From an uncultured Bacteroidales bacterium (GTDB lineage Bacteria; Bacteroidota; Bacteroidia; Bacteroidales; BM520): 64,000 bases of DNA. The stretch is taken from positions 3,225-67,224 of the forward strand of contig CAZQNY010000003.1 of the NCBI GenBank assembly GCA_964594665.1. Direction: 5' to 3'. Of this stretch, positions 3,458 to 19,606 are shown in pieces (position 1 is the first letter of the stretch; every line of letters begins with the position of its first letter). Under the pieces are notes generated by a model, which was not told the DNA's origin, searched no databases, and worked only from the letters and a program-made list of their open reading frames with translations. The position numbers were made by a program, and so were the translations under genes.

Positions 3458-3498
3458 TCTTATTATTTTTCAATGATTTATAAAGCGGCAAAGGTACA

Positions 3499-3506
3499 TA
3501 TTTTTG
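3499..3506 (+). promoter_or_regulatory. Candidate Bacteroidota -7 promoter box (TATTTTTG, matches TAnnTTTG)
   Basis: Exact match to the TAnnTTTG consensus upstream of the kinase-family gene. It is a single short motif only. Confidence 0.3.
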
Positions 3507-3588
3507 TAAGGTATCATCTGGTGAGATGTGATTTTTGAAAAATCCATCGTTAATCAATAGAAATAGTGTATTTTTATTTCATAAAGAA

Positions 3589-5268
3589 ATGATAAATATG
3601 GGATTACCGATTGAGATATTTTGTGAAAATTGTAAAAAACATTTTTCGTTTGATGTTGGCACATCATTGCAACAAATTGAAAAGGAATTATCAACACATC
3701 TTGAGTACCCTGCTCTTGGTGCTTTTGTGAATAATTCGTTGAAAGAGTTGACCTACCAGATTTACAAGCCCAAGCATGTGCGATTTATTGATATCCGCGA
3801 AGCAGATGGTATGCGGATGATCATTCGTTCGTTGCAGTTTGTGCTGTACAAAGCGGTTCATGATTTATTTCCCAAAATGGATTTTCATGTTGAGAATCCG
3901 GTATCAAATGGCATCTATTGTACAATCAGGAGCGGCAGGAAAGTTCTTACCCTGGAAGATATTGCGGCTATTCGTGAGCGAATGCAGGAAATTGTAGCTG
4001 CGGATATTCCTTTCCGCCGTGTGGAAATGGAAACTACTGAGGCTATTAAGGTTTTTGAATCCAATGGATTGGGAGAAAAGACACCTTTACTGAACACCCG
4101 CGGTTATTATTATACATCTGTGTACTTTCTGGAAGATACGCCGGATTATTATTACGGCTTTCTGGTGCCTTCAACAGGATATCTGAAGACATTCGACATT
4201 GTGCCGTTTTATAATGGTATCTTATTACGCTTTCCCAGCCGTCATACTCCACAGGAGTTAAAGCCCTTGATAAAGCAGGAAAAGATGCTATCTATTTTTG
4301 CTGAGTTTAACCGCTGGCAGAAAATTGTTGGCGTGAATAATATCGGAGAACTTAACGACGCTGTTGTTGACGGTTCTGTCAGTGACCTGATAAAGATTTC
4401 AGAAGCGTTACATGAGAAAAAAGTGGCGCAAATTGCCGATATGATAAGGGCAAAACGGAAAAAAATCCGTGTCGTGCTAATCTCAGGGCCTTCCTCGTCG
4501 GGGAAGACTACCTTTGCCAAGCGCCTGGGTATTCAGTTGCGCGTCGCAGGCCTTCATCCGGTGAAGATCTCCATGGATAATTATTTTGTCGACAGGGCGC
4601 TTACTCCTCTGGATGAGCATGGTGCGTATGATTTCGAATCGCTACAGGCTATTGATGTGGAGCTTTTTAATGAGCATTTGCTGGCCCTTATGGAAGGCCG
4701 TGAAGTTGAAATGCCCCGTTTTGATTTCCAGGAAGGAAAACGATACTATGCCGGTGATAATCTCAGGATAAAGAAAAAGGATATCATTATTGTGGAAGGT
4801 ATCCATGGCCTTAACCCGGGGCTTACGTCGCATATTGCCGATGAATCGAAGTTCCGGATATATGTCTCTGCCCTAACAACAATCTCTATCGACGGCCATA
4901 ACCTTATTCCCACAACCGACAATCGTCTTGCCCGACGCATTGTGCGCGATCATCTTTTCAGGGGCTACAGCGCTGCTGACACAATTTCGCGCTGGGAGAG
5001 TGTGCGCAGGGGTGAAGACAAGAATATTTTTCCTTTTCAGGAGAATGCTGATGTGATGTTTAACTCGGCATTACTTTACGAGCTTGGCGCTATTAAGCCA
5101 TTTATCACTCCCGTACTTCAGGCCATAGCGCCCAATCAGCCGGAGTATGCCGAGGCAAAACGGCTGCTGAAGTTTTTTAGTTATTTCCTGCCTGTGCCTG
5201 TAAACGAAATACCCCCCACGTCACTCATGAAAGAGTTCCTGGGGGGCAGCAGTTTTGAATATGAGTAA
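3589..5268 (+). CDS. Uridine/cytidine-kinase-family nucleoside kinase with a long N-terminal (TGS/ThrRS-like) extension
   Basis: P-loop ISGPSSSGKTTFAKRL and IIVEGIHGLNP. The ORF-track start at 3535 is TTG; the first ATG is 3589 (MINMGLP...), giving 559 aa. Confidence 0.8.
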   Translation: MINMGLPIEIFCENCKKHFSFDVGTSLQQIEKELSTHLEYPALGAFVNNSLKELTYQIYKPKHVRFIDIREADGMRMIIRSLQFVLYKAVHDLFPKMDFHVENPVSNGIYCTIRSGRKVLTLEDIAAIRERMQEIVAADIPFRRVEMETTEAIKVFESNGLGEKTPLLNTRGYYYTSVYFLEDTPDYYYGFLVPSTGYLKTFDIVPFYNGILLRFPSRHTPQELKPLIKQEKMLSIFAEFNRWQKIVGVNNIGELNDAVVDGSVSDLIKISEALHEKKVAQIADMIRAKRKKIRVVLISGPSSSGKTTFAKRLGIQLRVAGLHPVKISMDNYFVDRALTPLDEHGAYDFESLQAIDVELFNEHLLALMEGREVEMPRFDFQEGKRYYAGDNLRIKKKDIIIVEGIHGLNPGLTSHIADESKFRIYVSALTTISIDGHNLIPTTDNRLARRIVRDHLFRGYSAADTISRWESVRRGEDKNIFPFQENADVMFNSALLYELGAIKPFITPVLQAIAPNQPEYAEAKRLLKFFSYFLPVPVNEIPPTSLMKEFLGGSSFEYE

Positions 5269-6291: not shown

Positions 6292-6299
6292 TACATTTG
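6292..6299 (+). promoter_or_regulatory. Candidate -7 promoter box (TACATTTG)
   Basis: Matches TAnnTTTG, 19 nt upstream of the ATG at 6318. It overlaps the TTG at 6297 used by the ORF track, which argues for the ATG start. Confidence 0.35.
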
Positions 6300-6317
6300 A
6301 AAAAACTAACCGTAATT

Positions 6318-7940
6318 ATGAAAACTCCGTTTTTACTCCTTTTAATGTTGGTCTCTACCCTGTTGTTCGGGCAATGGACAACCGACACTGTAAGCAATTC
6401 ATTAATATCTTCTTATAGCAACGGGGCTGTGTCCAAGGCTGTTCCCGGGTTCAACGGATCGTGTTATATTTCGTATTACGGAAGTATGTTTGGCGGGTAT
6501 AATATGAACCTGCAGTATGTTGATTATTACGGCCAGAAACAATGGGCAGAGAATGGTATTACGGTAAGTGATCATGGTCAGGATTCGTGGATTGCTGATT
6601 ATGCTATGAATGTTGATACCAATGATGATGCCATTGTATGCTTTGCAGATATTCGCAACGGGGATCCGGATATTTTTGTTTATAAGCATAATGAAGCCGG
6701 AGAACCATTGTGGGGCGAAGATGGTATTTGTCTGTCTAACTCTGCAGAATATGAGTATTCCCCGGCGGCCTGTGTGCTTAACGATAATTCGGTGATCGTG
6801 TCGTGGGTAGTAGGAGATGCCATGAAGGTTCAGAAAATTTCCGTTGACGGAACCCTTGAATGGGGTGTTGAAGGTTTATTGATAACGGAAACGGGAAAAA
6901 GTTTTGGCTGGCCTGTGCCCTTACCCGACGATGACGGTGGTTTTTATCTTGCATATTTTAAGCAAACAGGATCGTATCCAGCACTTATAAAAATGATTTA
7001 TGTTCAGCGATTTAATGCTGATGGCACAATGGTATGGGATGAAGATGTTCAGGTGTGTGGTAATACCGGGATCTCTTCATGGTCGAAGATGTATGCCAGA
7101 AAAGACCATGAAAATGGTGTGCTGATATACTGGAGGGATGACCGCTTTGGTGATCTTATTCCCGATGTTGAAGTGCAACGTGTTAATGCTGCAGGAAATC
7201 CGGTATTTATTCCTAATGGTGTAACAGTATCTTCTGATGGACTTAATTGCTATTACCCTGCTGCTGCCTCACTGAACGATGGTACTGTAATGGTGTTTTT
7301 TACAAAAACGGATGGCTCCCAGAATTACCGTGGTATGTATGTCCAGAAGCTGGATCTTTTCGGTGAGCTTATGCTGGGCCCCAACGGGAAAGAGTTGTTC
7401 CCTCTTACAAGTGAGTTTAATTATACCATTGATATGCAGGCACATGTTGATAATGCCTTTTGTCTTTATTCAGTGTTCCCTCAAGGAATGGCTACCAATG
7501 AAAAGTTTTTTATCTATGCTTTGGACGAGGATGGAAATGATTTGTGGAATGAACCGTTGCCAATTGCTGTGGGTGAATATTCAAAAGTTCATCCCTGGCT
7601 TTCACGGGCTTTCGGCGGGCAGTTTGTAGTGACCTGGGAAAGTGGGGATAATGGTCATGTGTTTGCCCAGAACTTTACTACCTCAGGCGAAACAGGCGTA
7701 ATTTGGCAGGGGATTAACCGTACAGTGCAACAGGATGCCTTTCGTATCAGAGAAAACATCATTACCATTGAAAAGGCAGATGTGCTTTCCCTTTCTGTAT
7801 ATGATATGATGGGCAGGGCTTTTCTGAACGTTGATAAACCTGCAAAAGGGCAGGAGATAGCTGTGAATAATAAGGGTTTCCTTTTTATTACTTCTACACG
7901 CAGAGATGGCTCTCAGCATGTAACGAAAGTTTATTTTTAG
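6318..7940 (+). CDS. Secreted protein of unknown function, probable T9SS cargo
   Basis: 540 aa. Signal peptide MKTPFLLLLMLVSTLLFGQ. The C-terminal ~70 aa (LSLSVYDMMGRAFLNV...VTKVYF) resemble a T9SS sorting domain. Confidence 0.7.
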   Translation: MKTPFLLLLMLVSTLLFGQWTTDTVSNSLISSYSNGAVSKAVPGFNGSCYISYYGSMFGGYNMNLQYVDYYGQKQWAENGITVSDHGQDSWIADYAMNVDTNDDAIVCFADIRNGDPDIFVYKHNEAGEPLWGEDGICLSNSAEYEYSPAACVLNDNSVIVSWVVGDAMKVQKISVDGTLEWGVEGLLITETGKSFGWPVPLPDDDGGFYLAYFKQTGSYPALIKMIYVQRFNADGTMVWDEDVQVCGNTGISSWSKMYARKDHENGVLIYWRDDRFGDLIPDVEVQRVNAAGNPVFIPNGVTVSSDGLNCYYPAAASLNDGTVMVFFTKTDGSQNYRGMYVQKLDLFGELMLGPNGKELFPLTSEFNYTIDMQAHVDNAFCLYSVFPQGMATNEKFFIYALDEDGNDLWNEPLPIAVGEYSKVHPWLSRAFGGQFVVTWESGDNGHVFAQNFTTSGETGVIWQGINRTVQQDAFRIRENIITIEKADVLSLSVYDMMGRAFLNVDKPAKGQEIAVNNKGFLFITSTRRDGSQHVTKVYF

Positions 7941-8770: not shown

Positions 8771-9793
8771 ATGAAACAATTATTTACATTCCTCATTGCC
8801 GCGGTTTTTGTTGCTTCTGCAGCCAATGCACAATCTGTTATTACACACAACATGCATGCGCCGCAAATTGGTGATACCTACACCATTTACTATAGTGATT
8901 CTTATGATTATTTCGATCCGGGAACAGGTGGAGCAAACCAAACCTGGGATCTATCGGGATATGTTACTTCAGAAAGTGATATGGTTCATTTTGTCGATCC
9001 GGCAACAACTCCCTGGGGCGGGCAGGCAACAAATTCCAACCTGGCGACTCAGGTCGATTTTAAGGATATGGTTGTAATCTACCTGAATGTTACCTCTTCC
9101 ATGATGAAGAATACCGCTATGGGTACTTCTGCTGAAGGTATGGAGTTTTTTGGCAATTATGAAGATGAGCAGGAGCTGATGCATTTCCCTTTTGCCTATA
9201 ATGATAATTTCACGGATACCTACAGCTACACTTTCGAGTATTCTATGATGGGTATGACTATTCAGCTTGTTACCAGCGGCACCGATGTAACAACTGCTGA
9301 TGCCTGGGGAACGGTATCAACACCTTATGGCGTTTTTGAGAATGCCCTGCGTGTAAAAACTGTAACTACTGAAACACAGGAAACATGGATGAATGGTGTG
9401 CTTCAGGAATCAACAACAGATAATACAACGAATTATGAATTTTATCATAGCGATTATAAAGCTCCTTTGGCTTCGCTGTATTACGATGCAGAGTTTCCTG
9501 ATGAAACAGAGGTTACATTTACTGCCTTGGCAACAGGCATTTCTGAAATGGAAACTGCTGATGTAAATGTTTACCCAAATCCGGCTTCTGAAATGATTAG
9601 TATTGATTTCAGTGCCTTTAAATCCGGCAGTAATGTTAGCCTGATAAATGCAAAAGGTGCTGAAGTAGCTCGTTTTGTTGCAGGCAATACCGTTGAGCAG
9701 ATATCTGTATCCGAATTACCTCAGGGTATGTATATGATTATGGGTAAAGGTGCAAATAATCAGGCAATTAATACCAAGCTGGTGATTGAATAG
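8771..9793 (+). CDS. Secreted protein of unknown function with a T9SS C-terminal sorting domain
   Basis: 340 aa. Signal peptide MKQLFTFLIAAVFVASAANAQ. C-terminus VNVYPNPASEMISIDF...GMYMIMGKG...KLVIE. Confidence 0.75.
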   Translation: MKQLFTFLIAAVFVASAANAQSVITHNMHAPQIGDTYTIYYSDSYDYFDPGTGGANQTWDLSGYVTSESDMVHFVDPATTPWGGQATNSNLATQVDFKDMVVIYLNVTSSMMKNTAMGTSAEGMEFFGNYEDEQELMHFPFAYNDNFTDTYSYTFEYSMMGMTIQLVTSGTDVTTADAWGTVSTPYGVFENALRVKTVTTETQETWMNGVLQESTTDNTTNYEFYHSDYKAPLASLYYDAEFPDETEVTFTALATGISEMETADVNVYPNPASEMISIDFSAFKSGSNVSLINAKGAEVARFVAGNTVEQISVSELPQGMYMIMGKGANNQAINTKLVIE

Positions 9794-9820
9794 CGGTTGC
9801 ATTCACGAAGATATTCAGCG

Positions 9821-9852
9821 CGGCTTATCCTTTGGGTAAGCCGTTTTTTTTT
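9821..9852 (+). terminator. Intrinsic terminator
   Basis: CGGCTTA-tcctttggg-TAAGCCG followed by T9, 28 nt after the stop at 9793. Confidence 0.75.
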
Positions 9853-9900
9853 GTATTTAGTGCTGAAGAAGTATTTTCTTTGTGATACCGGGGTCGGGTT

Positions 9901-10824
9901 TTAATTCAGATTATCCGGATTGTTCTGATTCTGATACATATCAGCAAATTCTTTTGTTAACACTTCTGTTACTTCGCTTTTAAATGCAAACTCATTTCTA
10001 ATATCGTTGACATACGCTTTGACTTTAACTTTGAGCATTACTTTATGTCCGATTTTTTCCTGAAAAAATAATACTGCAATGGGTTTGTTGAGATAGATGT
10101 GTTTTGAAACCTGCGCTGTCTCCATGGCAAAATTTCTAACCCTGTTTATGTCACATGACAGCGGCAGGTAAATTTCAGTAACAACCTGGCAATTCTCTTC
10201 TCCGGAGTTGGCATTGGATACCGGCATATTCATGACGTCAGAATTTGGAACACTCACAAGATTATCATCGCTTGTTACCAGACGTGTGGAGCGTAATCCA
10301 ACACCAACTATTTCGCCGTAGTAATTCCCGATTTGTACCTTATCTCCAATCTGAAAAGGCTTGTCGAATATGATAATTATGCCACCAAAAATATTCTTTA
10401 GCAGATCCTGGGATGCAAAACCTACTGCCACACCAATCGATGCAGAAAAAGCAAGGACAGATGCCATAGGAGGCCTGAAAACTGCAACAAGAATGAATGT
10501 TAATGCACCCGTCCAGATAATTACTCTTGCCAGTGGTATCAATCCCTTGATTGTTAAACGATGCTTTGTGTTCCTCTCTGCCCACACTCCCATCATTAAA
10601 GATAAAACACGGAGAAAAATATAGGTGGAAATAATAATCAAAATGGAAAAAATGATTTTTGAGGCATTGAAATAACTGGAAATATTCCTGGTTTCCTTGT
10701 TTAGCTCACCTATGATATTGTCTCCTGAAACTGCAGTACTGTCGGCAACCTGACTGAATAGAGATACTGACGAAACTAAAATCAACAGTATTAATGGTAG
10801 GATATATTTAATGTTTTTTTTCAT
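9901..10824 (-). CDS. MscS-family mechanosensitive ion channel
   Basis: 307 aa. N-terminal signal/TM plus TM helices. Pore-helix region GVAVGFASQDLLKNIFGGIIIIFDKPFQIGD followed by a beta domain. The ATG lies 11 nt after the stop of the upstream ATPase gene. Confidence 0.9.
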   Translation of the reverse strand: MKKNIKYILPLILLILVSSVSLFSQVADSTAVSGDNIIGELNKETRNISSYFNASKIIFSILIIISTYIFLRVLSLMMGVWAERNTKHRLTIKGLIPLARVIIWTGALTFILVAVFRPPMASVLAFSASIGVAVGFASQDLLKNIFGGIIIIFDKPFQIGDKVQIGNYYGEIVGVGLRSTRLVTSDDNLVSVPNSDVMNMPVSNANSGEENCQVVTEIYLPLSCDINRVRNFAMETAQVSKHIYLNKPIAVLFFQEKIGHKVMLKVKVKAYVNDIRNEFAFKSEVTEVLTKEFADMYQNQNNPDNLN

Positions 10825-10835
10825 CTTTTCCCGGA

Positions 10836-13784
10836 TTAATGTATGAGATTTTTGCTTTTTAAAAGCTGAATTACATGTCGGTATAGTATTCCGTTTAACA
10901 TATAATTATTGCCCTTTAGGATAAGAATGGAATCTTCTTTAAGTATTGTAAGCACTTTAAGGCTTTTTCCTGTGCTTTGATTACAGACTGAGGCATGAAT
11001 GTCAACCGATATCTTTCCATGTAGTACAATTAATAAAAGCGTATAGATTTTTTCTGAAGAAAGAGTTTCCAGAAAAGTAAAGTCGGGGGTACTAAACTTT
11101 TTTATAAATAGATCTTTATCCGTAAATTTTGATATTGATTCCAGCCAGAAGTAGAGCGACAGACTTATGTTACTTCCTGAGAACCTGTTTAGCTGCATAA
11201 AGAATTCCTTTTCCAGCTGAATCTGCCGGTCTTTTGCCTTTTTATTATCCGGAGTCATATTTTGTTCATCATCATAATGAACTACATACCCACTAAGTCG
11301 GTGTCTTTTGAGAATTATATTCCGAACTTCATCCGCATCAAGGGTGTTGAGTTCAACCATATAATCGAAGTTTTCTTTAATCGATACGGTTTTATTTAGG
11401 TAATTACAGGCATGCAGTGAAACAGAACAAACCCACAAAGCCATGTTGTTGGTAGAAACAATAAATGAAAGCAATTTCTGAAGGCATTCAAACCCTCCTG
11501 GTTTTCTAATAAAAGCACGCTCAAGGCCATCCAAAATTATGATCTGATTCCCTTTCAACAACTCAAGGTGCTGTAATACATCCTTTTCCGTTTTCAGGTT
11601 TTCGTTATCAAAAAGATCCTGCATTAAGGTGTAAAAATCTTTTTCGCTGTGATAAAACCTGTGGATGGTGTAATAATAAATTTTATCGCTTCCTTTAATA
11701 GTTTTGATATAGTGCTGAAGTAGCGATGTTTTCCCGCAACCATTTTCGCCAATCACAAGAGTTGCGGCGTAATTTCCTGATTTCCAGTCTTTAAGCGCGG
11801 TTTCTATTTTTTCCAGCTCCTTCCGTCGTGATAGAAACAGATTAATTTCTTTAACGGGCGCATTTTCAAACAGATAGCGATAGATGACCGGTAGTTTATA
11901 GATTCTTGTATTGATATCAGCAAGGTAGTTGGAGATTTCTGACGACACAAAAACCGGTGCTTTGTCGAGTTTTAACTTTTTGCGTATCGAATAATAGGAG
12001 TCAATAAGCATTGTGTATTGCCTTTTTATGAATGACCCAACTGATTTTGCCACTTGTGATAAACCCCCAAAAATTTTACCCCGCTTATTTTTGGATTCTT
12101 CAATAGCTTTTAACTTTATAAGGCTGGAGTAGATGCTAAGAATGCGATCGTTGTTGTCAAGACTTTTAATATTTTCAATAAATTCAACATAAAAACCCTC
12201 CAGATCATTATCTCTCATGTGCAATATATCGTCTCCAATCAAGGTTGTGCGATCCAGAATATTTAATGACCGCTTCATGCCTTCCTTAAACATCAGAATT
12301 GTTTCTTCCTGGTTGCTTTGAGTATTGACCATTGATATGGCGGTATCAAGGGAAAAATCTATGATCTGATCAAAGTCGCTAAACTCAGCGATTATTTTCT
12401 GAAATTGTTCCTTAAAATTGTCGGAAGATAATTTAATGCTTTTAAAGAACGGAGGTATACATTTATAATTAATAAATTCACTTGGCGAGAAGAAATAGAT
12501 ATCTGATTTGTCGATCCCATTCATGTAGTCGGGTGAACGAACCACTCCCGATCGGGCAGACATTTTTTCCAGAGCTTTATTGACATCAACCTCTGTTTTC
12601 TGTAGTAATTTTTCAATTTCTAAACCTGTTTTACTGAAATTTCCAACGGCGCTTTGAGTATTTCCTTCCTTATGCAATTTGTAAAGCTCTGAGGTAAAGA
12701 AATGCTTCAACATTGCGTTATTTGTTAAATCAGGTTCCGGAACCTGTTTAATCAATTGTTCTAAGTAGGTTCTTTTTTGTGCAATTACAGGATGAATGGT
12801 TTTCTTTAATTTTTCTGTATAAAGGTTTAAAACTTCAGATCGTTGGTTTTTAATTGTTGAAATGAAAGTATATAGCTCCTCTCTGAAACGCCATCCTTCA
12901 TACAACGCGTATAAAGTTGAATCCCATTGCTTGCAGGTTTCTTCAGCTTGCGAGAAGATATTTCTTACATTTCTTTTCTTCCTGAAACGAATATAGAAAC
13001 CCGGGAATTCTGTTGTTCCCGACTTTTTTAAATGTGAAATAAATTCAGATTTATAGCCCTTAAAAAAGTCATTAATATTCTCAATATCTTCATTGATATC
13101 ATCAATCACTAAAGGGTTAACCTTTACATTTTCAGTGTTGTAGTTATCATTAATGATTTGCCCTTCCAGTTGAAAAAGGTTATGTGCCAGATGAGTAAGT
13201 TTTTTCTGAACTTCAGACACACTCTTTAGGGAAAAGAGAATATATTCATTTATTAAAAAGCCTTTTACAATATCACGGTAATAAATGTTATGACTTCTCT
13301 CTTTTAATGGTTTAGGCTGTTTCTTGCGAAATTTTGCAATACCGTTATTGATTTGGAGAGGAGCATTTTCAATATAAAAGAGAAAGTCTCCGGCTTTTCT
13401 GAGTATTTTACTTCCGAGGCTTGCTTTTTCAGTATATCCCAATCCGTTGGTATAAGAATCTGTAATTATTGAATCAAGGTTGTCGGCATCCATCATAAGT
13501 CCGGCTTTGAGCGTATTGAGAAAATCTTTTATCTCAGTTTTGGACTTTAAATTGGGGTTCAGTGATTTTAGCAGTTCCAGGTTACGGGCATGAAATGCGC
13601 ATAAATCTTTTTCGGCAGGCTTCCCGGGTTTATTTATTAATGTTTCAATATTCTCCCTGATACGTTGAAGAGTAGTTGCCTGTTCCCGAACATATTCTGA
13701 AACAATTGGCTTAATAGTATTATTCCACGCAACGACAAGCCTTTCTGATTTTTCGCTCAAGCTTTTTATGGTATCATTGTGCAT
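10836..13784 (-). CDS. Large P-loop NTPase of unknown function (Walker A in the C-terminal third, wHTH-like tail)
   Basis: 982 aa with no TM segment. About 670 aa of K/N/E/I-rich, apparently helical sequence, then Walker A VIGENGCGKTSLL, Walker B-like NQIIILDGLE, and a C-terminal segment LLLIVLHGKISVDIHASVCNQSTGKSLKVLTILKEDSILI resembling a winged helix. Confidence 0.75.
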   Translation of the reverse strand: MHNDTIKSLSEKSERLVVAWNNTIKPIVSEYVREQATTLQRIRENIETLINKPGKPAEKDLCAFHARNLELLKSLNPNLKSKTEIKDFLNTLKAGLMMDADNLDSIITDSYTNGLGYTEKASLGSKILRKAGDFLFYIENAPLQINNGIAKFRKKQPKPLKERSHNIYYRDIVKGFLINEYILFSLKSVSEVQKKLTHLAHNLFQLEGQIINDNYNTENVKVNPLVIDDINEDIENINDFFKGYKSEFISHLKKSGTTEFPGFYIRFRKKRNVRNIFSQAEETCKQWDSTLYALYEGWRFREELYTFISTIKNQRSEVLNLYTEKLKKTIHPVIAQKRTYLEQLIKQVPEPDLTNNAMLKHFFTSELYKLHKEGNTQSAVGNFSKTGLEIEKLLQKTEVDVNKALEKMSARSGVVRSPDYMNGIDKSDIYFFSPSEFINYKCIPPFFKSIKLSSDNFKEQFQKIIAEFSDFDQIIDFSLDTAISMVNTQSNQEETILMFKEGMKRSLNILDRTTLIGDDILHMRDNDLEGFYVEFIENIKSLDNNDRILSIYSSLIKLKAIEESKNKRGKIFGGLSQVAKSVGSFIKRQYTMLIDSYYSIRKKLKLDKAPVFVSSEISNYLADINTRIYKLPVIYRYLFENAPVKEINLFLSRRKELEKIETALKDWKSGNYAATLVIGENGCGKTSLLQHYIKTIKGSDKIYYYTIHRFYHSEKDFYTLMQDLFDNENLKTEKDVLQHLELLKGNQIIILDGLERAFIRKPGGFECLQKLLSFIVSTNNMALWVCSVSLHACNYLNKTVSIKENFDYMVELNTLDADEVRNIILKRHRLSGYVVHYDDEQNMTPDNKKAKDRQIQLEKEFFMQLNRFSGSNISLSLYFWLESISKFTDKDLFIKKFSTPDFTFLETLSSEKIYTLLLIVLHGKISVDIHASVCNQSTGKSLKVLTILKEDSILILKGNNYMLNGILYRHVIQLLKSKNLIH

Positions 13785-14012
13785 GTTGAGATTTTTAGTC
13801 AGTTATTTTTTTGGCAAATCACATCAATAGAGCATATCACCTGTGTCATATTATAAAAATACGATTAAAAATAATATGAAAGCATTTTTATTGCGTCAAA
13901 AAAACCAAAGGAGCATAATCAAACTATTAATTAACGAAGTGGAACACTTAAGAATTCAATTCTGTTATGATAACAACGGTTACCAAAACATGTCATACAG
14001 ACCATTTAATTA

Positions 14013-15998
14013 TTAAGGTAGTTTATGGCCATTCCGTTGTTTATTATTTGTCAGATTGATATGCCTGATATTCTTTAATATTTCGATTCGATCAACAAAG
14101 GTGTCAATAACCATATTATACAATTCGTCACCCAGAACCTCATCTTCAACGCCAAAATCTATATTGGGGTTATCATTTACTTCTATTACATAAACTTTAT
14201 TATTCACATATTTTAGGTCAACACCATACAATCCATCTCCTATCAAAGATGCGGCTTTTAAGGCTAAGCTAACAATTTCCTCTGGCACCTGGCTGATTGG
14301 GAGGGTTTCATAGTTACCTGATTTGTCCTCTTCATCGCTGTTCCAGTTATATATTTGCCAATGGTTCTGGGTCATATAATACTTGCAGGCATATATTGGC
14401 TTGTTATCAAGTATGCCTATTCTCCAGTCGAATTCTGAATAAAGAAATTCCTGACATATCACCATATCAGTTTTTTTAAACAGTAATGCTAATTGCGTTT
14501 TTGCTTCATTTTGGTCGTTTACTTTTATCACACCTAACGAAAAAGCACTGTCAGGCTGCTTTAATACTGCCGGATATTTAATGCTTTCAAGCATCTTGTC
14601 ATTGAACATGTTTTTTGTTAAAGAGAGTGTTTTAGGTGTTCTGATTTTGTTTTTTTTGAATAACTCATTTTGGTAAATCTTATTGGAACACCTGAGGATT
14701 GACCATGGATCGTCAATGACAACAAGGCCTTCAGCGAAAGCCAAACGGGAGAGTTCGTATGTGTAATGATTAACATTGGTGGTCTCACGGATGAAAAGGG
14801 CATCAAATTCATTTATTTTATTGGTGTCATGTTTGCTTATAAATTCTATATAAACTCCTTTTTTGTTGGCTGCCTTACGGAATCGCTCCAGTGCTTCTTT
14901 ATTGGAAGGCGGATTCTCTTCATAGGGATTAATCAAAATTGCAATATCGTAACTGTAGTTATTTAATTTAGGTAAATTATAACGTTTTTTATTAAAGTGC
15001 TTTTGTGCAGCGTAGTAAAAAAGTGCTTTTTGGTCGTTTTTCAGATCTTTAAATGTTAACGCCTTAATGTTTTTTATAATCCATTTTTCCGATTTAATGA
15101 AGTTAACGGTGAATATCGGGACCTCAAAAACCTGGAATAGTTTGATAGCTAAAGTTTTGTATTTGGTGTGTGGCGTTTGGCCAAAATATATATCAAGAGA
15201 TAAACTATGATTTGCTTCCTTATAAAGTATCCGGTTTACCTGATCGCCGAGTTCGTATGAAAGTGATTGGACCACGTTGGCAATTTGTACGTCTTTTATT
15301 GTCGATGTACTTGGAATCGCCCGTTGGCCTCTGGCGGAGGCTAATAATGAAACATAATAACCATAACTTTGGTATCTGTATGAACTACATAAGTTGAAGA
15401 TTCTAAAACTTGCATTGTTCTGATACAATGGATTATTAATATAATCCTTCACTGAAATAACTTTTGCTTTTATATCGGTGTTTTTCCAGGAATACGGATG
15501 GTCGATTACGATCAGGTTTTTATTCTCTTTTTCAACGCCTGTTTCTCCTGTTCTCAACCCCAGTTTAAGTGCATCTTCTTCAGGCTGGTAATAGTCTTTC
15601 AATGTTTTCAAAACAATAAAGCCTTTTGACAGATACCATTCAATTAATTTTTTATTTTTTGCCCTTGCTTCCAGTGTAATGCTTTTGTAATTGTGATTTA
15701 TCGCGTAGGTTTTGATATATTCAAGTAATGCATTTCCAATGCCACAGTTTTGATACTCGGCCAATATACCAATTGAATAAATGCGGAGCATATGCTTGTA
15801 TTTAAACAAAACGGCCGACCCTACAGGTTTTATTTCGCTTTTTGCATCTTCAACCATAATAATTTCCTGGAAAGGACTTAGGATGCTTTTTTTTAAGCTG
15901 TTTTTTGTTGTTTGTTGAAAAGCAGGGAAAGATTCTTGTTCCAGCGTTACAAGAAATTCAATGTCGTCAGTATTTGCATTCCGATAAATGAGATTCAT
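14013..15998 (-). CDS. GNAT acetyltransferase fused to a RimK-type ATP-grasp ligase (three-part amidoligase)
   Basis: 661 aa from the ATG at 15998; the track start at 16007 is TTG. N-terminal GNAT (IGILAEYQNCGIGNALLEYI). Middle segment FRIFNLCSSYRYQSYGYYVSLLASARGQRAIPS, RLAN-like from memory. C-terminal ATP-grasp (PAVLKQPDSAFSLGV, VYVIEVNDNPNIDFG). Confidence 0.8.
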   Translation of the reverse strand: MNLIYRNANTDDIEFLVTLEQESFPAFQQTTKNSLKKSILSPFQEIIMVEDAKSEIKPVGSAVLFKYKHMLRIYSIGILAEYQNCGIGNALLEYIKTYAINHNYKSITLEARAKNKKLIEWYLSKGFIVLKTLKDYYQPEEDALKLGLRTGETGVEKENKNLIVIDHPYSWKNTDIKAKVISVKDYINNPLYQNNASFRIFNLCSSYRYQSYGYYVSLLASARGQRAIPSTSTIKDVQIANVVQSLSYELGDQVNRILYKEANHSLSLDIYFGQTPHTKYKTLAIKLFQVFEVPIFTVNFIKSEKWIIKNIKALTFKDLKNDQKALFYYAAQKHFNKKRYNLPKLNNYSYDIAILINPYEENPPSNKEALERFRKAANKKGVYIEFISKHDTNKINEFDALFIRETTNVNHYTYELSRLAFAEGLVVIDDPWSILRCSNKIYQNELFKKNKIRTPKTLSLTKNMFNDKMLESIKYPAVLKQPDSAFSLGVIKVNDQNEAKTQLALLFKKTDMVICQEFLYSEFDWRIGILDNKPIYACKYYMTQNHWQIYNWNSDEEDKSGNYETLPISQVPEEIVSLALKAASLIGDGLYGVDLKYVNNKVYVIEVNDNPNIDFGVEDEVLGDELYNMVIDTFVDRIEILKNIRHINLTNNKQRNGHKLP

Positions 15999-16019
15999 TT
16001 TTTTCAATGTGTTGAAAAG

Positions 16020-17261
16020 TTAATACTCCCGTAAGCTTCTTTCAATATATTCCAGTTGCCAGATTTTGAATAGTAACAGATCGGAAGGAGGCTCAGTGGG
16101 TTCATTTTCCATGATAGTATTTATTTGCAACTGCTGTTCAGCTGTGAGTTTATTTTCAGTGAATATGGTCAGGAGCTGGCATAAATAATTTGCTCCATTT
16201 ATATTTATGGTTATATCACCGGTTGTGCCGGGCTGTAACCGGAATAACCTGATGGTTTTATAGGTTATGGCATCGCCGGAATATTCACGAATATATCCAT
16301 TCTCTGTAATTATTGCATCAGGAAAGATTTTTCGGCTGATAATCCGTCGATAACCAGCTTTTTGAAAGCGGTTTTTAAAATGAAAGGAACAGTAATTGAT
16401 TCCTGTTTCAAGTCCGCATTTTTGGGCTTCATAAATTATCTCCAGTGCTGCCAGCTCCGATTCTACTACAAGAGGCCTCTCGTCGCATAAGATATGGTAG
16501 TTTCTCTCGATTAGTTTGTTCACATTATGATGTGTCAGCCGCAGATGATGCAGATTCAGGTTGGAGACCCCTGCTTCGACCATTTTGGGAAGCATTTGAA
16601 TAATCCTGTCCTTTTCTTCAGGAACACAAGGAATCTCAATCGTAATAACCGGGATAATACCCTTAGCGATTTTTACTTTATTGAGGTTGTATTCTGTTGC
16701 ACCAATATCAAAGCGTATCTCGTTGAGGTTTTCTTTTGCCAATGCCCGTAGCTTTGATTCATCTGCCAGCAAGCCATTGGTGTACATCCATATATACAGA
16801 TTTGGATTGCATTTTTGCCTTAAAACCTTCAGGTATTCAAGGGTGCGGTCGAAATATAATAGCGGCTCGCCACCACTAAAACTAACACCTTCAAACCCAA
16901 AATGATTAATGTAGTTTGCGTAATCATATGGATTGTCAAAGTCTATTCCCTGGGTTGACGGCAGCTCATCATTCTTTTGTGGCGCAGGGCAATAAAAGCA
17001 ATTTGCATTGCACTTGTTGGTGATAAACAGGCAGCTCCATTTTCCTGATCCGCAGATTTGACAACCTTTGGAAATATGGTTTAGGTACGGTTTTGTATCT
17101 TTAAAAAGCGGAACATTTTTAAATGTTTGTAAAAGCCTTGTTCTATAATCCTCTGAATCCTTTGCCATGTGAGGATTTAACCATTGCAGTTCAGGGTATT
17201 GGGAGAATTCATTTTTCGTTTTTGTAACTAATGAGTTCATCCATAAATATTTTGCTTCCAT
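16020..17261 (-). CDS. Radical SAM enzyme, subfamily not assignable by eye
   Basis: 413 aa. CNANCFYC (CX3CX2C) preceded by CQICGSGKWSC. SFSGGEPLL glycine-rich SAM motif. No Cys-rich SPASM-type C-terminus. Confidence 0.85.
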   Translation of the reverse strand: MEAKYLWMNSLVTKTKNEFSQYPELQWLNPHMAKDSEDYRTRLLQTFKNVPLFKDTKPYLNHISKGCQICGSGKWSCLFITNKCNANCFYCPAPQKNDELPSTQGIDFDNPYDYANYINHFGFEGVSFSGGEPLLYFDRTLEYLKVLRQKCNPNLYIWMYTNGLLADESKLRALAKENLNEIRFDIGATEYNLNKVKIAKGIIPVITIEIPCVPEEKDRIIQMLPKMVEAGVSNLNLHHLRLTHHNVNKLIERNYHILCDERPLVVESELAALEIIYEAQKCGLETGINYCSFHFKNRFQKAGYRRIISRKIFPDAIITENGYIREYSGDAITYKTIRLFRLQPGTTGDITININGANYLCQLLTIFTENKLTAEQQLQINTIMENEPTEPPSDLLLFKIWQLEYIERSLREY

Positions 17262-17741
17262 TATCTGTTATTGAGAAAGAATATTCAGGCATATCAGCCG
17301 AGGCTGTATAGAAAATTAAGGGTAGAAAAAGCTGATCCGGAAGCTTTAGAGCTCAGAGAAAATATACAGGAACATTAGAAACTGTTCCAGTGATATGAAA
17401 GCCGCACATGTTTTGACTTTTATAAGCATATTTATCATTATAAGAAGGCCGGAAAGGTACTGCTTTTTTTGAATGAATAGGTGAAGGATGTATTATTCCT
17501 TTATAATTACAGGAATTAGCCAACCATCACGTAATTTTACGAAATGTGGCCCGGTGTAACTCCGGACTGAATATCCATATTATACGTTAAATGGTAACCC
17601 TTCGGCTACGGGCAATTTGCAGGGTTTGAATGGCAGGCGTAGTTTTGGCATAGACCCGAGATAACACTTACCGGACGCCAAAAAAATGCAGAAAGTGTTG
17701 CTGCAGAGGGAGACCAGCAGACGATCATCGGCTCAGTTTAT

Positions 17742-17761
17742 CCCCCCCCCCCCAAAAAAAA
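17742..17761. repeat. Homopolymer tract C12 immediately followed by A8
   Basis: Counted directly: C at 17742-17753 and A at 17754-17761. It lies in the ~890-bp divergent intergenic region. Confidence 0.95.
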
Positions 17762-18148
17762 TTCAATGAATGCACTTTTTACTACCGGGAGGTAAAGCAC
17801 AGGAAAAAGACGAGCAAGATGTAAAGCCTCACCGCCGTGTGAGGCTCCCCAAAATGCCTATTTGATCTCACCGTCATATTCCCTCTTTCTCCCTTCTTCA
17901 CAATTAGGAAATCGTTCTACTTTAACGGTGGGTCAATACTGTTAAACCAACAACGGATAAACCGCATTTTACAAAGGTTGAGGGTAACAGCTCAATCCAG
18001 TAGTATCACTCCCTGCAACTTTTTGAAACCTCCCCTGCAAACTCTTGCAGCCCTTATTGCAACGGGGATTTAAAGAGTTACTGCTACATTGCAGCACTTT
18101 GCGAATTCATCACCAAAGTGCAATTTGTTTAACCCTAAATCCTTTATT

Positions 18149-19606
18149 ATGAAAATTTCCCCAAAAATTCTGATTCTTCAACTGATCATTCTTGCGCTGT
18201 TCACCTCATGCAATGATCCTGATGATCCAAACAACCTTGATAATGAACTTGATACTTTCACGGTAACGGTAGATGAAAACCCCCATGTACCCGGAAATAT
18301 GATTTCATACAACAGCGGGGAGAATACTTCTACCTTCTGCTTCTCTCCAACAATGACAAAAGATGGCAAAGATGATGGTGTATGGATTGCCGAAACAGAA
18401 TTAACATACGCTCTCTGGAAAGAAGTTTACAACTGGGCTGTGGATGCCGGATACTCCCTGTATAAAAATGCGCAGCCAGGAAGTAATACAGATTTCCCGG
18501 ATACGCACCCCGTTACAAGGGTCGGCTGGTACGACGCTGTGGTGTGGTGTAATGCATACACTGCCTATTACAACTTCCATAATGGTGATAAACCGGATTA
18601 TGGTTTTGTGTATACCATAAACGGTGACCCCGTGAAAGATTCGGATCCGGATAATACGTCCTTTGGCTCAATGACTATCGACCACAGTAAAATGGGCTTC
18701 CGGCTTCCTACCAATGAAGAGTGGTACTACGCCGCAAAATATCCCTCTACGCCCGATGATTATGCCAGTGGTGCCACCGGGAATTGTGAAAATACCTCCG
18801 CAACAGAGAATGTAGCCTGGTACAATGCATGCAGCTCCGCAGAGACTCACCCCGTTAAGGAAAAAACAAAAAATCAACTCAACCTGTACGATATGAGCGG
18901 CAACGTGAAAGAGATTGTCCTTGATAAACTCGCTGAATACAACGGTGACTATAATAACAGGGGAGGAGCATATAATTCCGCAGCAGAAAATGTTACTATT
19001 GGTAACGGGCATCAACCTATAGAACAGCATAGCAGCTCTGTTTCGCAAGGCTTTCGTATTGCCCGTACCATCGGCGATGATAACAACGCAGGGTTTAATA
19101 TTAATACCGGCGGCGGTAGTGGTTCCTGTGAAGCAGGCCATGGAACGGGATATTTGAAAATGGGAGGTGACTCTGTAGCCATTACTAAAGCGATGGGTGG
19201 CGATTATAACACGCTCCTGCAGGGAGGCTACCTGCAGCTGGATCTCTTTACAGAGGGCCTTTCCGTTAATAAAGATGTAAACTGGGGCTTTGAAGGATCC
19301 GGAAGCCAGGTGGGATTGTGGCCTATCATGACACAAAATACCACTCTCGTAGCCGGTGAAGATTACCTTGATGACGCCCCGTTGCTGTCAGCATATATCG
19401 ACTTTGACGCTTCTATTACCCCCTGGGAAGCTGCAAATGGTTTTATCGCCAACAATATTTCAGTATTTACTGTCGAAAAGGAAGATGATATCTACACGAT
19501 TACGATAAAAGCCACAGGAACAGATAATTTCTATAATGAAAATGTCCCTCTGGAAGTTTTCTATCACGGAACGATTAATTACCTGATCGCCGGTCAGGAT
19601 TACTAA
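18149..19606 (+). CDS. Lipoprotein with an FGE-sulfatase/SUMF1-type domain and an extra C-terminal domain
   Basis: 485 aa from the ATG at 18149. Lipobox LALFTSC. SUMF1-type motifs GFRLPTNEEWYYAAK, NLYDMSGNVKEIV, RGGAYNS and GFRIARTI. About 170 further aa are unassigned. Confidence 0.8.
   Translation: MKISPKILILQLIILALFTSCNDPDDPNNLDNELDTFTVTVDENPHVPGNMISYNSGENTSTFCFSPTMTKDGKDDGVWIAETELTYALWKEVYNWAVDAGYSLYKNAQPGSNTDFPDTHPVTRVGWYDAVVWCNAYTAYYNFHNGDKPDYGFVYTINGDPVKDSDPDNTSFGSMTIDHSKMGFRLPTNEEWYYAAKYPSTPDDYASGATGNCENTSATENVAWYNACSSAETHPVKEKTKNQLNLYDMSGNVKEIVLDKLAEYNGDYNNRGGAYNSAAENVTIGNGHQPIEQHSSSVSQGFRIARTIGDDNNAGFNINTGGGSGSCEAGHGTGYLKMGGDSVAITKAMGGDYNTLLQGGYLQLDLFTEGLSVNKDVNWGFEGSGSQVGLWPIMTQNTTLVAGEDYLDDAPLLSAYIDFDASITPWEAANGFIANNISVFTVEKEDDIYTITIKATGTDNFYNENVPLEVFYHGTINYLIAGQDY

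Follow-up and report, generated by a model that had tools for sequence, protein, structure and literature searches.

A candidate AAA+ winged-helix partner encoded beside a subfamily of MscS-type channels

The 64,000-nucleotide (nt) stretch of bacterial DNA analyzed here (contig CAZQNY010000003.1 of assembly GCA_964594665.1; hereafter the window) encodes a 982-amino-acid (aa) ATPase directly ahead of a 307-aa channel of the MscS family. We propose, with a probability of about 0.55, that this ATPase is the dedicated cytoplasmic partner of a specialized MscS channel, regulating or scaffolding it in a nucleotide-dependent manner, and that the pair serves ion and osmotic homeostasis. MscS channels release solutes and are the textbook case of direct gating by membrane tension, and their known accessory controls are fused sensor domains; we know of no characterized MscS channel with a dedicated ATPase partner. 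If the proposal holds, a whole MscS subfamily would be under nucleotide-dependent cytoplasmic control through a separate, dedicated AAA+ protein. The novelty would lie in the type of partner that regulates an MscS-family channel; the mechanism is deduced, the case for a functional unit is unusually strong for a computational one, and the pair lends itself to experiment.

Results

The ATPase and channel genes form a predicted two-gene operon

The two genes lie on the same strand, and the ATG of the channel gene follows the TAA of the ATPase gene after exactly 11 nt:

10836..13784, minus strand: ATPase gene, soluble 982-aa product, ATG start and TAA stop (open reading frame (ORF) list; stop codon counted in)
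9901..10824, minus strand: gene for the 307-aa MscS-family channel, ATG start, of a putative dedicated partner subfamily (ORF list; PF00924)
10825..10835, minus strand: junction between the ATPase stop and the MscS start, 11 nt, TCCGGGAAAAG (read from the sequence)

Related loci came from two sets. The 14 closest genomic loci are all from Bacteroidales metagenome-assembled genomes, and 80 metagenome loci represent the more distant part of the family. The latter were found with a tighter alignment of the deviant clade described below; the 47-sequence alignment was too diverse for a metagenome pattern scan. Linkage was counted with a hidden Markov model (HMM) of the partner channel, in loci whose DNA extends at least 500 nt downstream. 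Every one of the 13 closest Bacteroidales loci with downstream DNA carries MscS directly 3' of the ATPase gene, and a channel of the partner subfamily occupies this position in 91 of 92 loci, an adjacency far beyond chance. The apparent gap between the genes has a median of ~9 nt, and in 19 loci they overlap by 1-14 nt, many of them by 1 or 4 nt. These conserved short or overlapping junctions suggest that the two genes are translationally coupled. The single exception, P0017 (L016 6001-9321), is followed by an EamA transporter gene, and residues 1004-1104 of its ATPase are homologous to the cytoplasmic domain at the C-terminus of partner MscS proteins (E 1e-15); it looks like a deletion-fusion remnant of the pair. 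Both ORFs and their spacing had been called by an earlier reading of the letters alone (hereafter the sequence-only reading) and are confirmed here, and the link to MscS that it had drawn in the window holds among the homologues.

When the ORFs of 103 loci were clustered all against all, only two conserved families emerged, the ATPase and the MscS channel. A 126-aa ORF cluster (11 loci), considered as a third conserved gene, lies antisense inside MscS (for example, L023 3926-4255 on the minus strand, within MscS 3488-4459) and was taken as spurious. Pairwise identities among the ATPases rise and fall with those among the MscS proteins (Spearman 0.77, 2628 pairs), the pattern that joint inheritance of the pair would give. 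Measured against the window proteins, median identity is 45% among the channels and 21% among the ATPases, the channel evolving about half as fast as the ATPase.

More than 100 loci from several phyla keep the ATPase together with MscS, in Bacteroidales, Lentimicrobium (Bacteroidota), Ignavibacteriaceae, Sphingomonadales (Alphaproteobacteria) and others. Altogether, the conserved gene order and sequences argue that ATPase and MscS are an autonomous two-gene unit and an anciently conserved operon. An autonomous, defense-like module had been one of two options in the sequence-only reading; the autonomy stands, in the loci counted above and in four further lineages, and the defense part is weighed below.

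The ATPase ends in a predicted AAA+ winged-helix module

The features of the ATPase are as follows:

11976..13784, minus strand: N-terminal all-helical domain, residues 1-603 (AlphaFold2; no known relative)
11868..11894, minus strand: pre-ATPase motif LPVIYRYLF, residues 631-639 (conserved; translation checked)
11295..11837, minus strand: AAA+/NACHT-like P-loop core, residues ~650-830 (Pfam; Foldseek E 5e-9 to 1e-7 with 2qen, Orc1/Cdc6, ORC subunits and RuvB)
11727..11750, minus strand: Walker A GENGCGKT, residues 679-686, canonical
11520..11543, minus strand: Walker B IIILDGLE, residues 748-755, NACHT-like hhhhDGhE
10839..11087, minus strand: predicted C-terminal winged helix, residues 900-982, including H922 (AlphaFold2, Foldseek)

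A hydrophobicity scan found no transmembrane segment in the protein. Pfam matches are limited to residues ~646-846 (ATPase_2, AAA_22, AAA_16 and NACHT), and residues 1-640 have none. Two of these matches are marginal, ATPase_2/PF01637 with 33.5 bits against a cut-off of 33.2 and NACHT (PF05729) with 28.3 against 26.7. The nSTAND1 model stays below its cut-off (18.7 against 27.1 bits), and NCBIfam gave only sub-threshold matches of the Orc1/Cdc6 type, TIGR02928 (orc1/cdc6) reaching 15.4 of the 181.3 bits needed. Comparison of the family profile with PDB chain sequences returned P-loop noise only (E >0.2).

We then turned to predicted structures. The full-length AlphaFold2 model has a predicted local distance difference test score (pLDDT) of 72 and a predicted template-modeling score (pTM) of 0.49, its P-loop region is poorly modelled, and a Foldseek search with it gave nothing below 1e-3. 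Residues 560-982 were remodelled with a broader alignment (pLDDT 85.8, pTM 0.77), and this model matched 772 PDB chains below 1e-3. The top match is the Walker-type ATPase PABY2304 (2qen, 5.5e-9), with 1w5s (~1e-8), 2qby (1.2e-8) and 1fnn (1.3e-8) close by and a probability of 1.00 for 2qen, 2qby and 1fnn; the best matches after PABY2304 comprise archaeal Orc1/Cdc6 (2qby, 1fnn, 1w5s/t and 2v1u), eukaryotic ORC and Cdc6 subunits, and RuvB. All these are AAA+ proteins with an alpha/beta core, a lid and a winged helix, and the ~410-aa C-terminal module of the window ATPase is, as modelled, an AAA+ core followed by a lid and a winged helix. The winged helix itself has a helix-strand-strand topology in the AlphaFold2 model (pLDDT ~90) and matches winged-helix regulators and the ORC/Cdc6 winged helix in Foldseek.

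Conserved positions fall both within this module and ahead of it. H922 and N979 in the winged helix are invariant across 47 diverse family members, as are L631, P632, Y635 and L638 of the pre-ATPase motif. The Walker A stretch, VIGENGCGKTSLL, begins at residue 677. The hhhhDGLE form of Walker B and the marginal NACHT match would lend the ATPase domain a STAND flavor. Neither Pfam nor the models revealed a repeat of the TPR, WD40 or LRR type, and no residues follow the winged helix, which runs to the C-terminus at residue 982; for lack of such a C-terminal repeat sensor we do not file the ATPase as a typical STAND protein, despite its DGLE Walker B and NACHT match.

The N-terminal domain (residues 1-603) is modelled as very long helices with a pLDDT of ~80-90 (for example, H262-347). 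It had no Pfam, NCBIfam or PDB sequence match, and designed helical bundles were its sole Foldseek matches. The domain is kept across the ~1000-aa family and is absent from the transporter fusions described below. The sequence-only reading fared well on this protein: it had described a soluble ATPase with Walker A and Walker B motifs, a long helical N-terminal part free of recognizable motifs, a winged-helix tail and an ORC/Cdc6- or STAND-like character, and each of these descriptions agrees with the motifs, Pfam matches and models reported here.

The ATPase family is large and often has remodelled Walker motifs

A word-indexed search found ~15 close homologues. An exhaustive profile search returned 2802 representatives at E<1e-3 and 740 at E<1e-30, and the window ATPase is the founding member of the family made up of these 740 representative clusters. 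Nearly all of the best 150 representatives are ~1000 aa long and match the window ATPase end to end. In databases the relatives are named only 'hypothetical protein', 'AAA family ATPase', 'AAA+ ATPase domain-containing protein' or 'amino acid permease', and cluster look-ups for family names returned none; under our proposal, the ~740 protein clusters labelled 'hypothetical' or 'AAA family ATPase' could gain a context-based name.

We surveyed the Walker motifs in 149 near-full-length proteins (900-1110 aa), most of them from the best 150 representatives. The canonical motifs, GxxGxGK[ST] and hhhhDG.ER, occur together in 36 of the 149 proteins, which make up the clade of the window ATPase. In the remaining 113 the Walker A motif reads GE[KR]GSGx[TS]: another residue takes the place of the canonical lysine, a K/R stands four positions before it, and Walker B, covarying with the type of Walker A, is hhhhE[ND]LQ. 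The glycines and the Ser/Thr around the deviant Walker A are retained. This retention and the correlated change of the two motifs point to remodelling of the active site rather than to its decay, and the sequence pattern suggests that the deviant Walker A may hold a relocated catalytic lysine. A correlated remodelling in which the lysine has moved four positions would be of interest for P-loop enzymology. Linkage to MscS is present with both the canonical and the deviant type.

The partner channels appear to be a distinct MscS subfamily

Two regions of the channel are referred to in this section:

10750..10824, minus strand: signal-peptide-like N-terminus of MscS, residues 1-25 (hydrophobic stretch)
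10207..10473, minus strand: pore-lining third transmembrane helix (TM3) and beta-domain, residues 118-206 (conservation; Pfam MS_channel_2nd, residues 140-206)

The 307-aa protein matches PF00924 over residues 140-206 with 72.5 bits, against a cut-off of 20.2, and aligns to structures of YnaI, MscS, MscK and MscM (query residues 56-278 for E. coli MscS and 63-218 for YnaI). It has three hydrophobic helices, with hydrophobic segments at ~51-82, 93-125 and 118-137, and a Gly/Ala-rich pore helix; TM3 sits just before the beta-domain, and a C-terminal alpha/beta domain comes after it. These features assign the protein to the MscS family, as the sequence-only reading had done, and predict gating by tension.

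Within this family, the partner channels are set apart by their scores against the partner-MscS HMM, ~300-460 bits (419 bits for the window channel) compared with 110-250 for the other MscS paralogues in the loci, which argues for a distinct clade or subfamily. Over 86 partner channels, mean column conservation is highest in residues 118-206 (0.75-0.79); along the whole channel, it is the pore helix, beta-domain and C-terminal domain that vary least. Residues 1-25 are the least conserved region (0.30); a like hydrophobic N-terminus is seen in the partner channels of L017, L103 and Novosphingobium. Reading the sequence by eye, we take the hydrophobic pore positions equivalent to E. coli L105/L109 to be V/F in the window channel.

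The ATPase module is fused to ion transporters in distant relatives

Five proteins of ~1700 aa (P0018, P0019, P0020, P0196 and P0197), one of them from Lentimicrobium, consist of an N-terminal AA_permease and SLC12 domain (PF00324 and PF03522, cation-chloride-cotransporter-like) followed by a C-terminal ATPase module. Homology with these fusions is restricted to residues 573-986 of the query (hhalign probability 99.7), and the LPVIYRYLF motif is conserved in the SLC12 fusions too. All three SLC12-fusion loci examined (P0018, P0019 and P0197) have an MscS gene of ~235-245 aa next, 2-20 nt away or overlapping. A Na_H_Exchanger domain (PF00999) stands ahead of the ATPase module in the 1507-aa P0195, and an overlapping 3' ORF there has a signal peptide and transmembrane pattern like those of the partner channels (an MscS-like N-terminus).

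Another arrangement is found in Novosphingobium pentaromativorans US6-1, where a 1110-aa 'AAA family ATPase' (WP_007014233.1; pLA3, L105 3610-6942) is followed 2 nt on by a 'mechanosensitive ion channel family protein' (WP_039857743.1). This ATPase has a signal peptide, an Ala/Glu/Gln-rich coiled-coil-like stretch and about six transmembrane helices ahead of the ATPase module, a layout that may resemble the N-terminal part of MscK/MscM. The ATPase-MscS pair is also present in Altererythrobacter atlanticus, under the same two RefSeq names and with overlapping genes beside cbb3 oxidase genes, and in a further lineage (P0205).

Comparison of these architectures indicates that the invariant core is the ATPase-winged-helix module together with MscS, and that the N-terminal part is interchangeable: soluble helices, a transporter of the SLC12 type, an exchanger of Na+ and H+, or an anchor in the membrane can stand there. 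In the fusions the ATPase module comes to lie on the cytoplasmic side of the membrane and is tied to ion and cell-volume proteins; those with SLC12 and Na+/H+ exchangers point to ion homeostasis. They also give bacterial SLC12 homologues, to our knowledge barely studied, a testable functional context, and they suggest a prokaryotic counterpart of coordinated cell-volume regulation. Cation-chloride cotransporters control intracellular ions and cell volume, as stated in PMC8461084.

Discussion

A proposed mechanism

In the mechanism that we propose, the ATPase and MscS would be made together and would assemble into a complex on the cytoplasmic side of the membrane, where the ATPase would be a nucleotide-dependent switch or scaffold setting whether and when the channel opens or is assembled. 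Contact could be made through the winged helix, the LPxxYRxLF region or an oligomeric ring below the heptameric cytoplasmic cage of MscS, although an AAA+ ring stacked below a seven-fold cage is speculative. Besides membrane tension, a signal from the cytoplasm (energy charge, ionic strength or crowding, for instance) would then govern solute release. In the Bacteroidota form, input or scaffolding would fall to the ~600 helical residues at the N-terminus; where the module is fused, the switch would match the uptake of ions through the cotransporter or exchanger to their release by MscS, as a cell-volume and ion-homeostasis unit. We put forward only tentatively, and at less than even odds, the full version of this picture, an undescribed machine for ion and volume homeostasis in which the AAA+ switch docks on the MscS cage and gates it and in which, in lineages where it is fused to a cotransporter or exchanger, one ATPase coordinates both uptake and release.

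Several points weigh against a regulatory partnership of this kind. The canonical Walker A lysine is missing in 113 of the 149 members surveyed (the window ATPase retains the canonical motifs), and ATP hydrolysis may not be central to the function of the family. The N-terminal ~600 residues make up 60% of the protein, and the role proposed for them is conjectural. AAA+ winged-helix proteins of the ORC/Cdc6/RuvB type normally bind DNA, not channels. The faster evolution of the ATPase than of the channel also fits a sensor-effector immune pair. In the case as a whole, linkage, co-divergence, fold, fusions and genomic context are observed; that the two proteins touch, that the ATPase governs how the channel gates or assembles, and what signal it answers to are inferred.

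Alternative readings of the pair

We consider it unlikely that the AAA+ protein is instead a biogenesis or quality-control factor that uses ATP to assemble, insert or disassemble the heptameric MscS channel (and the fused transporter). AAA+ proteins commonly remodel or assemble oligomers, the operon coupling is strictly 1:1 with short junctions, and the co-divergence of ATPase and MscS would imply the direct contact that such a factor makes. Yet the fold is closest to the initiator/switch clade (PABY2304, Orc1/Cdc6, ORC, RuvB), not to the classic unfoldase clades, and has NACHT-like motifs; moreover, a Walker A remodelled in most members is a poor fit to a hard-working motor, and other MscS channels assemble unaided.

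The pair could also be an anti-phage abortive-infection module, in which a STAND-like NTPase would sense infection and open the channel to depolarize or drain the cell, but we find this improbable, and the defense half of the sequence-only reading is not supported. It would agree with the NACHT match just above the cut-off, the sub-threshold nSTAND1 match, the NACHT-like DGLE Walker B, a 'sensor' ATPase that evolves faster than its 'effector' channel and a GC content of the region below that of its flanks; ion-efflux P-loop NTPase defenses also exist, such as Tmn, described in PMC13001434. However, PADLOC-DB 2.0 gave only P-loop-level matches for the ATPase (mad8, mad3 and PtuA, over 16-43 residues around Walker A) and no match for the channel. 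A location in defense islands, which the sequence-only reading had raised, is not what the neighborhoods show: among the 143 nearest flanking genes in related loci, PADLOC found no systematic defense families and there was no defense enrichment, tRNA synthetases, cbb3 oxidase, nitrate reductase and ion transporters being found instead. Phage records held no copy of the ATPase gene, and plasmid records held one distant copy only, on a non-mobilizable 757-kb replicon. The ATPase has no C-terminal repeat sensor domains, its SLC12 and Na+/H+ exchanger fusions are hard to square with immunity, its co-divergence with MscS speaks for inheritance of the two as one unit, and a term search of two large surveys of NTPase conflict systems found no mention of MscS.

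A DNA-binding role, in which an ORC/Cdc6-like ATPase would use its winged helix to regulate transcription of the channel gene and would have no physical link to the channel, is very improbable in our view. Its closest folds are indeed DNA-binding AAA+ winged-helix proteins and winged-helix transcription regulators. Against this, some versions of the module are kept at the membrane by fusion to 12-TM transporters or by transmembrane helices of their own, a DNA-binding regulator would not be expected to co-diverge with the channel protein, and the MscS cytoplasmic domain fused in P0017 suggests association at the protein level; a simple repressor also needs no 982 residues.

Scarcely credible is the other option of the sequence-only reading, a release valve or regulator for the product of the upstream GNAT-RLAN-ATP-grasp and radical SAM genes. 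These genes lie close to the pair on its strand, the GNAT and ATP-grasp architecture of the first is that of Ngg (PMC8070244), and a RimK-type ligase and PF05618 protease stand beside the pair in five other loci. Yet both genes are absent from the 14 closest loci, 228 nt lie between the ATP-grasp gene and the ATPase gene, and the ATP-grasp protein reaches no specific NCBIfam model. The pair itself is found in many unrelated contexts, is alone conserved across the 103 loci, and has a RimK-type ligase beside it in only 6 of them in total. Poor conservation by itself largely refutes this option.

Comparison with known systems

The ATPase-MscS pair was not described in the literature searched, and PADLOC matched it at the level of the P-loop only, in line with the remark in the sequence-only reading that the pairing resembles no named system. 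The window channel shares with MscS, YnaI, MscK and MscM the PF00924 beta-domain, the three transmembrane helices and the Gly/Ala-rich pore helix; unlike ordinary MscS, it falls in a distinct putative subfamily encoded right after an AAA+ ATPase and has a signal-peptide-like N-terminus. With PABY2304, PF01637 and Orc1/Cdc6 proteins, the window ATPase shares the P-loop alpha/beta core, the helical lid and the C-terminal winged helix, whereas its identity to PABY2304 and Orc1/Cdc6 is 11-16%, its 600-aa helical N-terminal domain is its own, and its family is linked to a channel and fused to transporters, not tied to replication or DNA functions; in most of its relatives, moreover, the Walker A lysine appears relocated. 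STAND and NACHT proteins, including Avs, resemble it in the marginal NACHT match, the hhhhDGhE Walker B and a winged helix with the conserved H922, but it has no C-terminal TPR, WD40 or LRR array, no recognizable death or nuclease effector domain and no defense-island context.

A functional analogy is offered by the RCK/KTN gating rings TrkA and KtrA and by KefF/KefG with KefC/KefB, in which a soluble cytoplasmic nucleotide-binding protein, encoded beside or fused to a channel or transporter, controls its activity. The likeness is one of function only: RCK proteins are Rossmann-type and KefF flavodoxin-like, in contrast to the AAA+ winged helix here, the partner in our case is MscS, and there is no sequence relationship. 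SLC12 transporters and CPA Na+/H+ exchangers supply the transporter N-termini of distant relatives of the ATPase module, the window ATPase having no transporter domain. Studied eukaryotic SLC12 proteins are regulated by kinases and are not known to be controlled by a fused AAA+ module. Tmn, as presented in PMC13001434, is an anti-phage P-loop NTPase whose action is tied to an efflux of ions through the inner membrane. It differs from the window pair in being a single transmembrane protein of another NTPase family, with a demonstrated phage trigger and no MscS component; nothing in the window pair points to a phage trigger.

Neighboring genes and flanking sequence

The commonest of the 143 flanking genes surveyed are further MscS genes (10), followed by the PF05618 protease, rhomboid, DUF2231 and a 2Fe-2S thioredoxin-like ferredoxin (4 each); Na+/H+ exchangers (3), CorA (2), nitrate reductase and housekeeping genes such as those for tRNA synthetases also occur. 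It is MscS genes, Na+/H+ exchangers and CorA that are enriched among the nearest neighbors, and defense genes are not. Ten MscS genes among 143 neighbors is far above what we would expect of a typical genome, this expectation being an estimate rather than a computed background. Immediately behind the partner MscS there is often a row of ordinary MscS paralogues (L091 8065-9863; L086 7309-10008; L034 3212-4114; L081 7281-8195; and others), which suggests clusters of solute-release channel genes.

A PF05618 'Zn_protease' gene and a RimK gene adjoin the pair in five metagenome loci, three of which have them immediately 3' of the pair and on its strand:

L025 1596-3012; L033 7792-9146; L039 7786-9155; L079 7982-9357; L089 1602-3367: PF05618 and RimK genes

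The count of 6 of 103 loci with a RimK-type ligase includes the ATP-grasp gene of the window, and at this frequency RimK has no dedicated partnership with the pair.

Upstream of the pair in the window, 14013-16007 (minus strand) encodes a 664-aa GNAT, RLAN and RimK-like ATP-grasp protein. Its gene begins 12 nt after a radical SAM gene (16020-17261, minus strand) whose 413-aa product matches HxsC, MoaA and viperin-like models in the core only. GNAT plus ATP-grasp is the architecture of Ngg, which makes the osmolyte precursor N-acetylglutaminylglutamine (PMC8070244). We rejected the 664-aa protein as an Ngg orthologue, as only the domain composition is shared.

Two non-coding features flank the pair:

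13785..14012, minus strand: intergenic region 5' of the ATPase gene, 228 nt, likely site of the pair's own promoter
9820..9844, no strand assigned: GC-rich hairpin, probable terminator (terminator scan)

The upstream region is long enough for a promoter and likely holds that of the pair. A sigma-70 promoter scan found promoter-like sites at a level not above shuffled expectation, and a repeat scan of the upstream region found short AT-rich inverted repeats only. An Rfam scan of 9600-18200 matched no RNA family, which argues against a riboswitch upstream of the pair. The hairpin lies between the 3' end of MscS and a convergent gene (8771-9793) and has an 11-bp stem with 6 GC pairs. Read on the plus strand, it has a T-run; read on the minus strand, it lies 57 nt past the MscS stop with an A-run ahead of it. 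It is probably a terminator.

The GC content is 0.34-0.37 across the ATPase-MscS and ATP-grasp genes (10001-16000), compared with 0.40-0.47 in the flanks, a drop that could stem from the abundance of Lys, Asn and Ile in the proteins or from a foreign source of the DNA. Elsewhere in the window, a 547-aa ORF (6297-7940, plus strand) had no Pfam match. A 577-aa protein (3535-5268, plus strand) has a phosphoribulokinase/uridine-kinase domain confined to residues 314-511, its ~300 N-terminal residues being without assignment. The convergent gene at 8771-9793 (plus strand) encodes a 340-aa protein with a type IX secretion C-terminal sorting domain (PF18962), and the window is assigned to Bacteroidota by this domain and by its closest ATPase homologues, which come from Bacteroidales.

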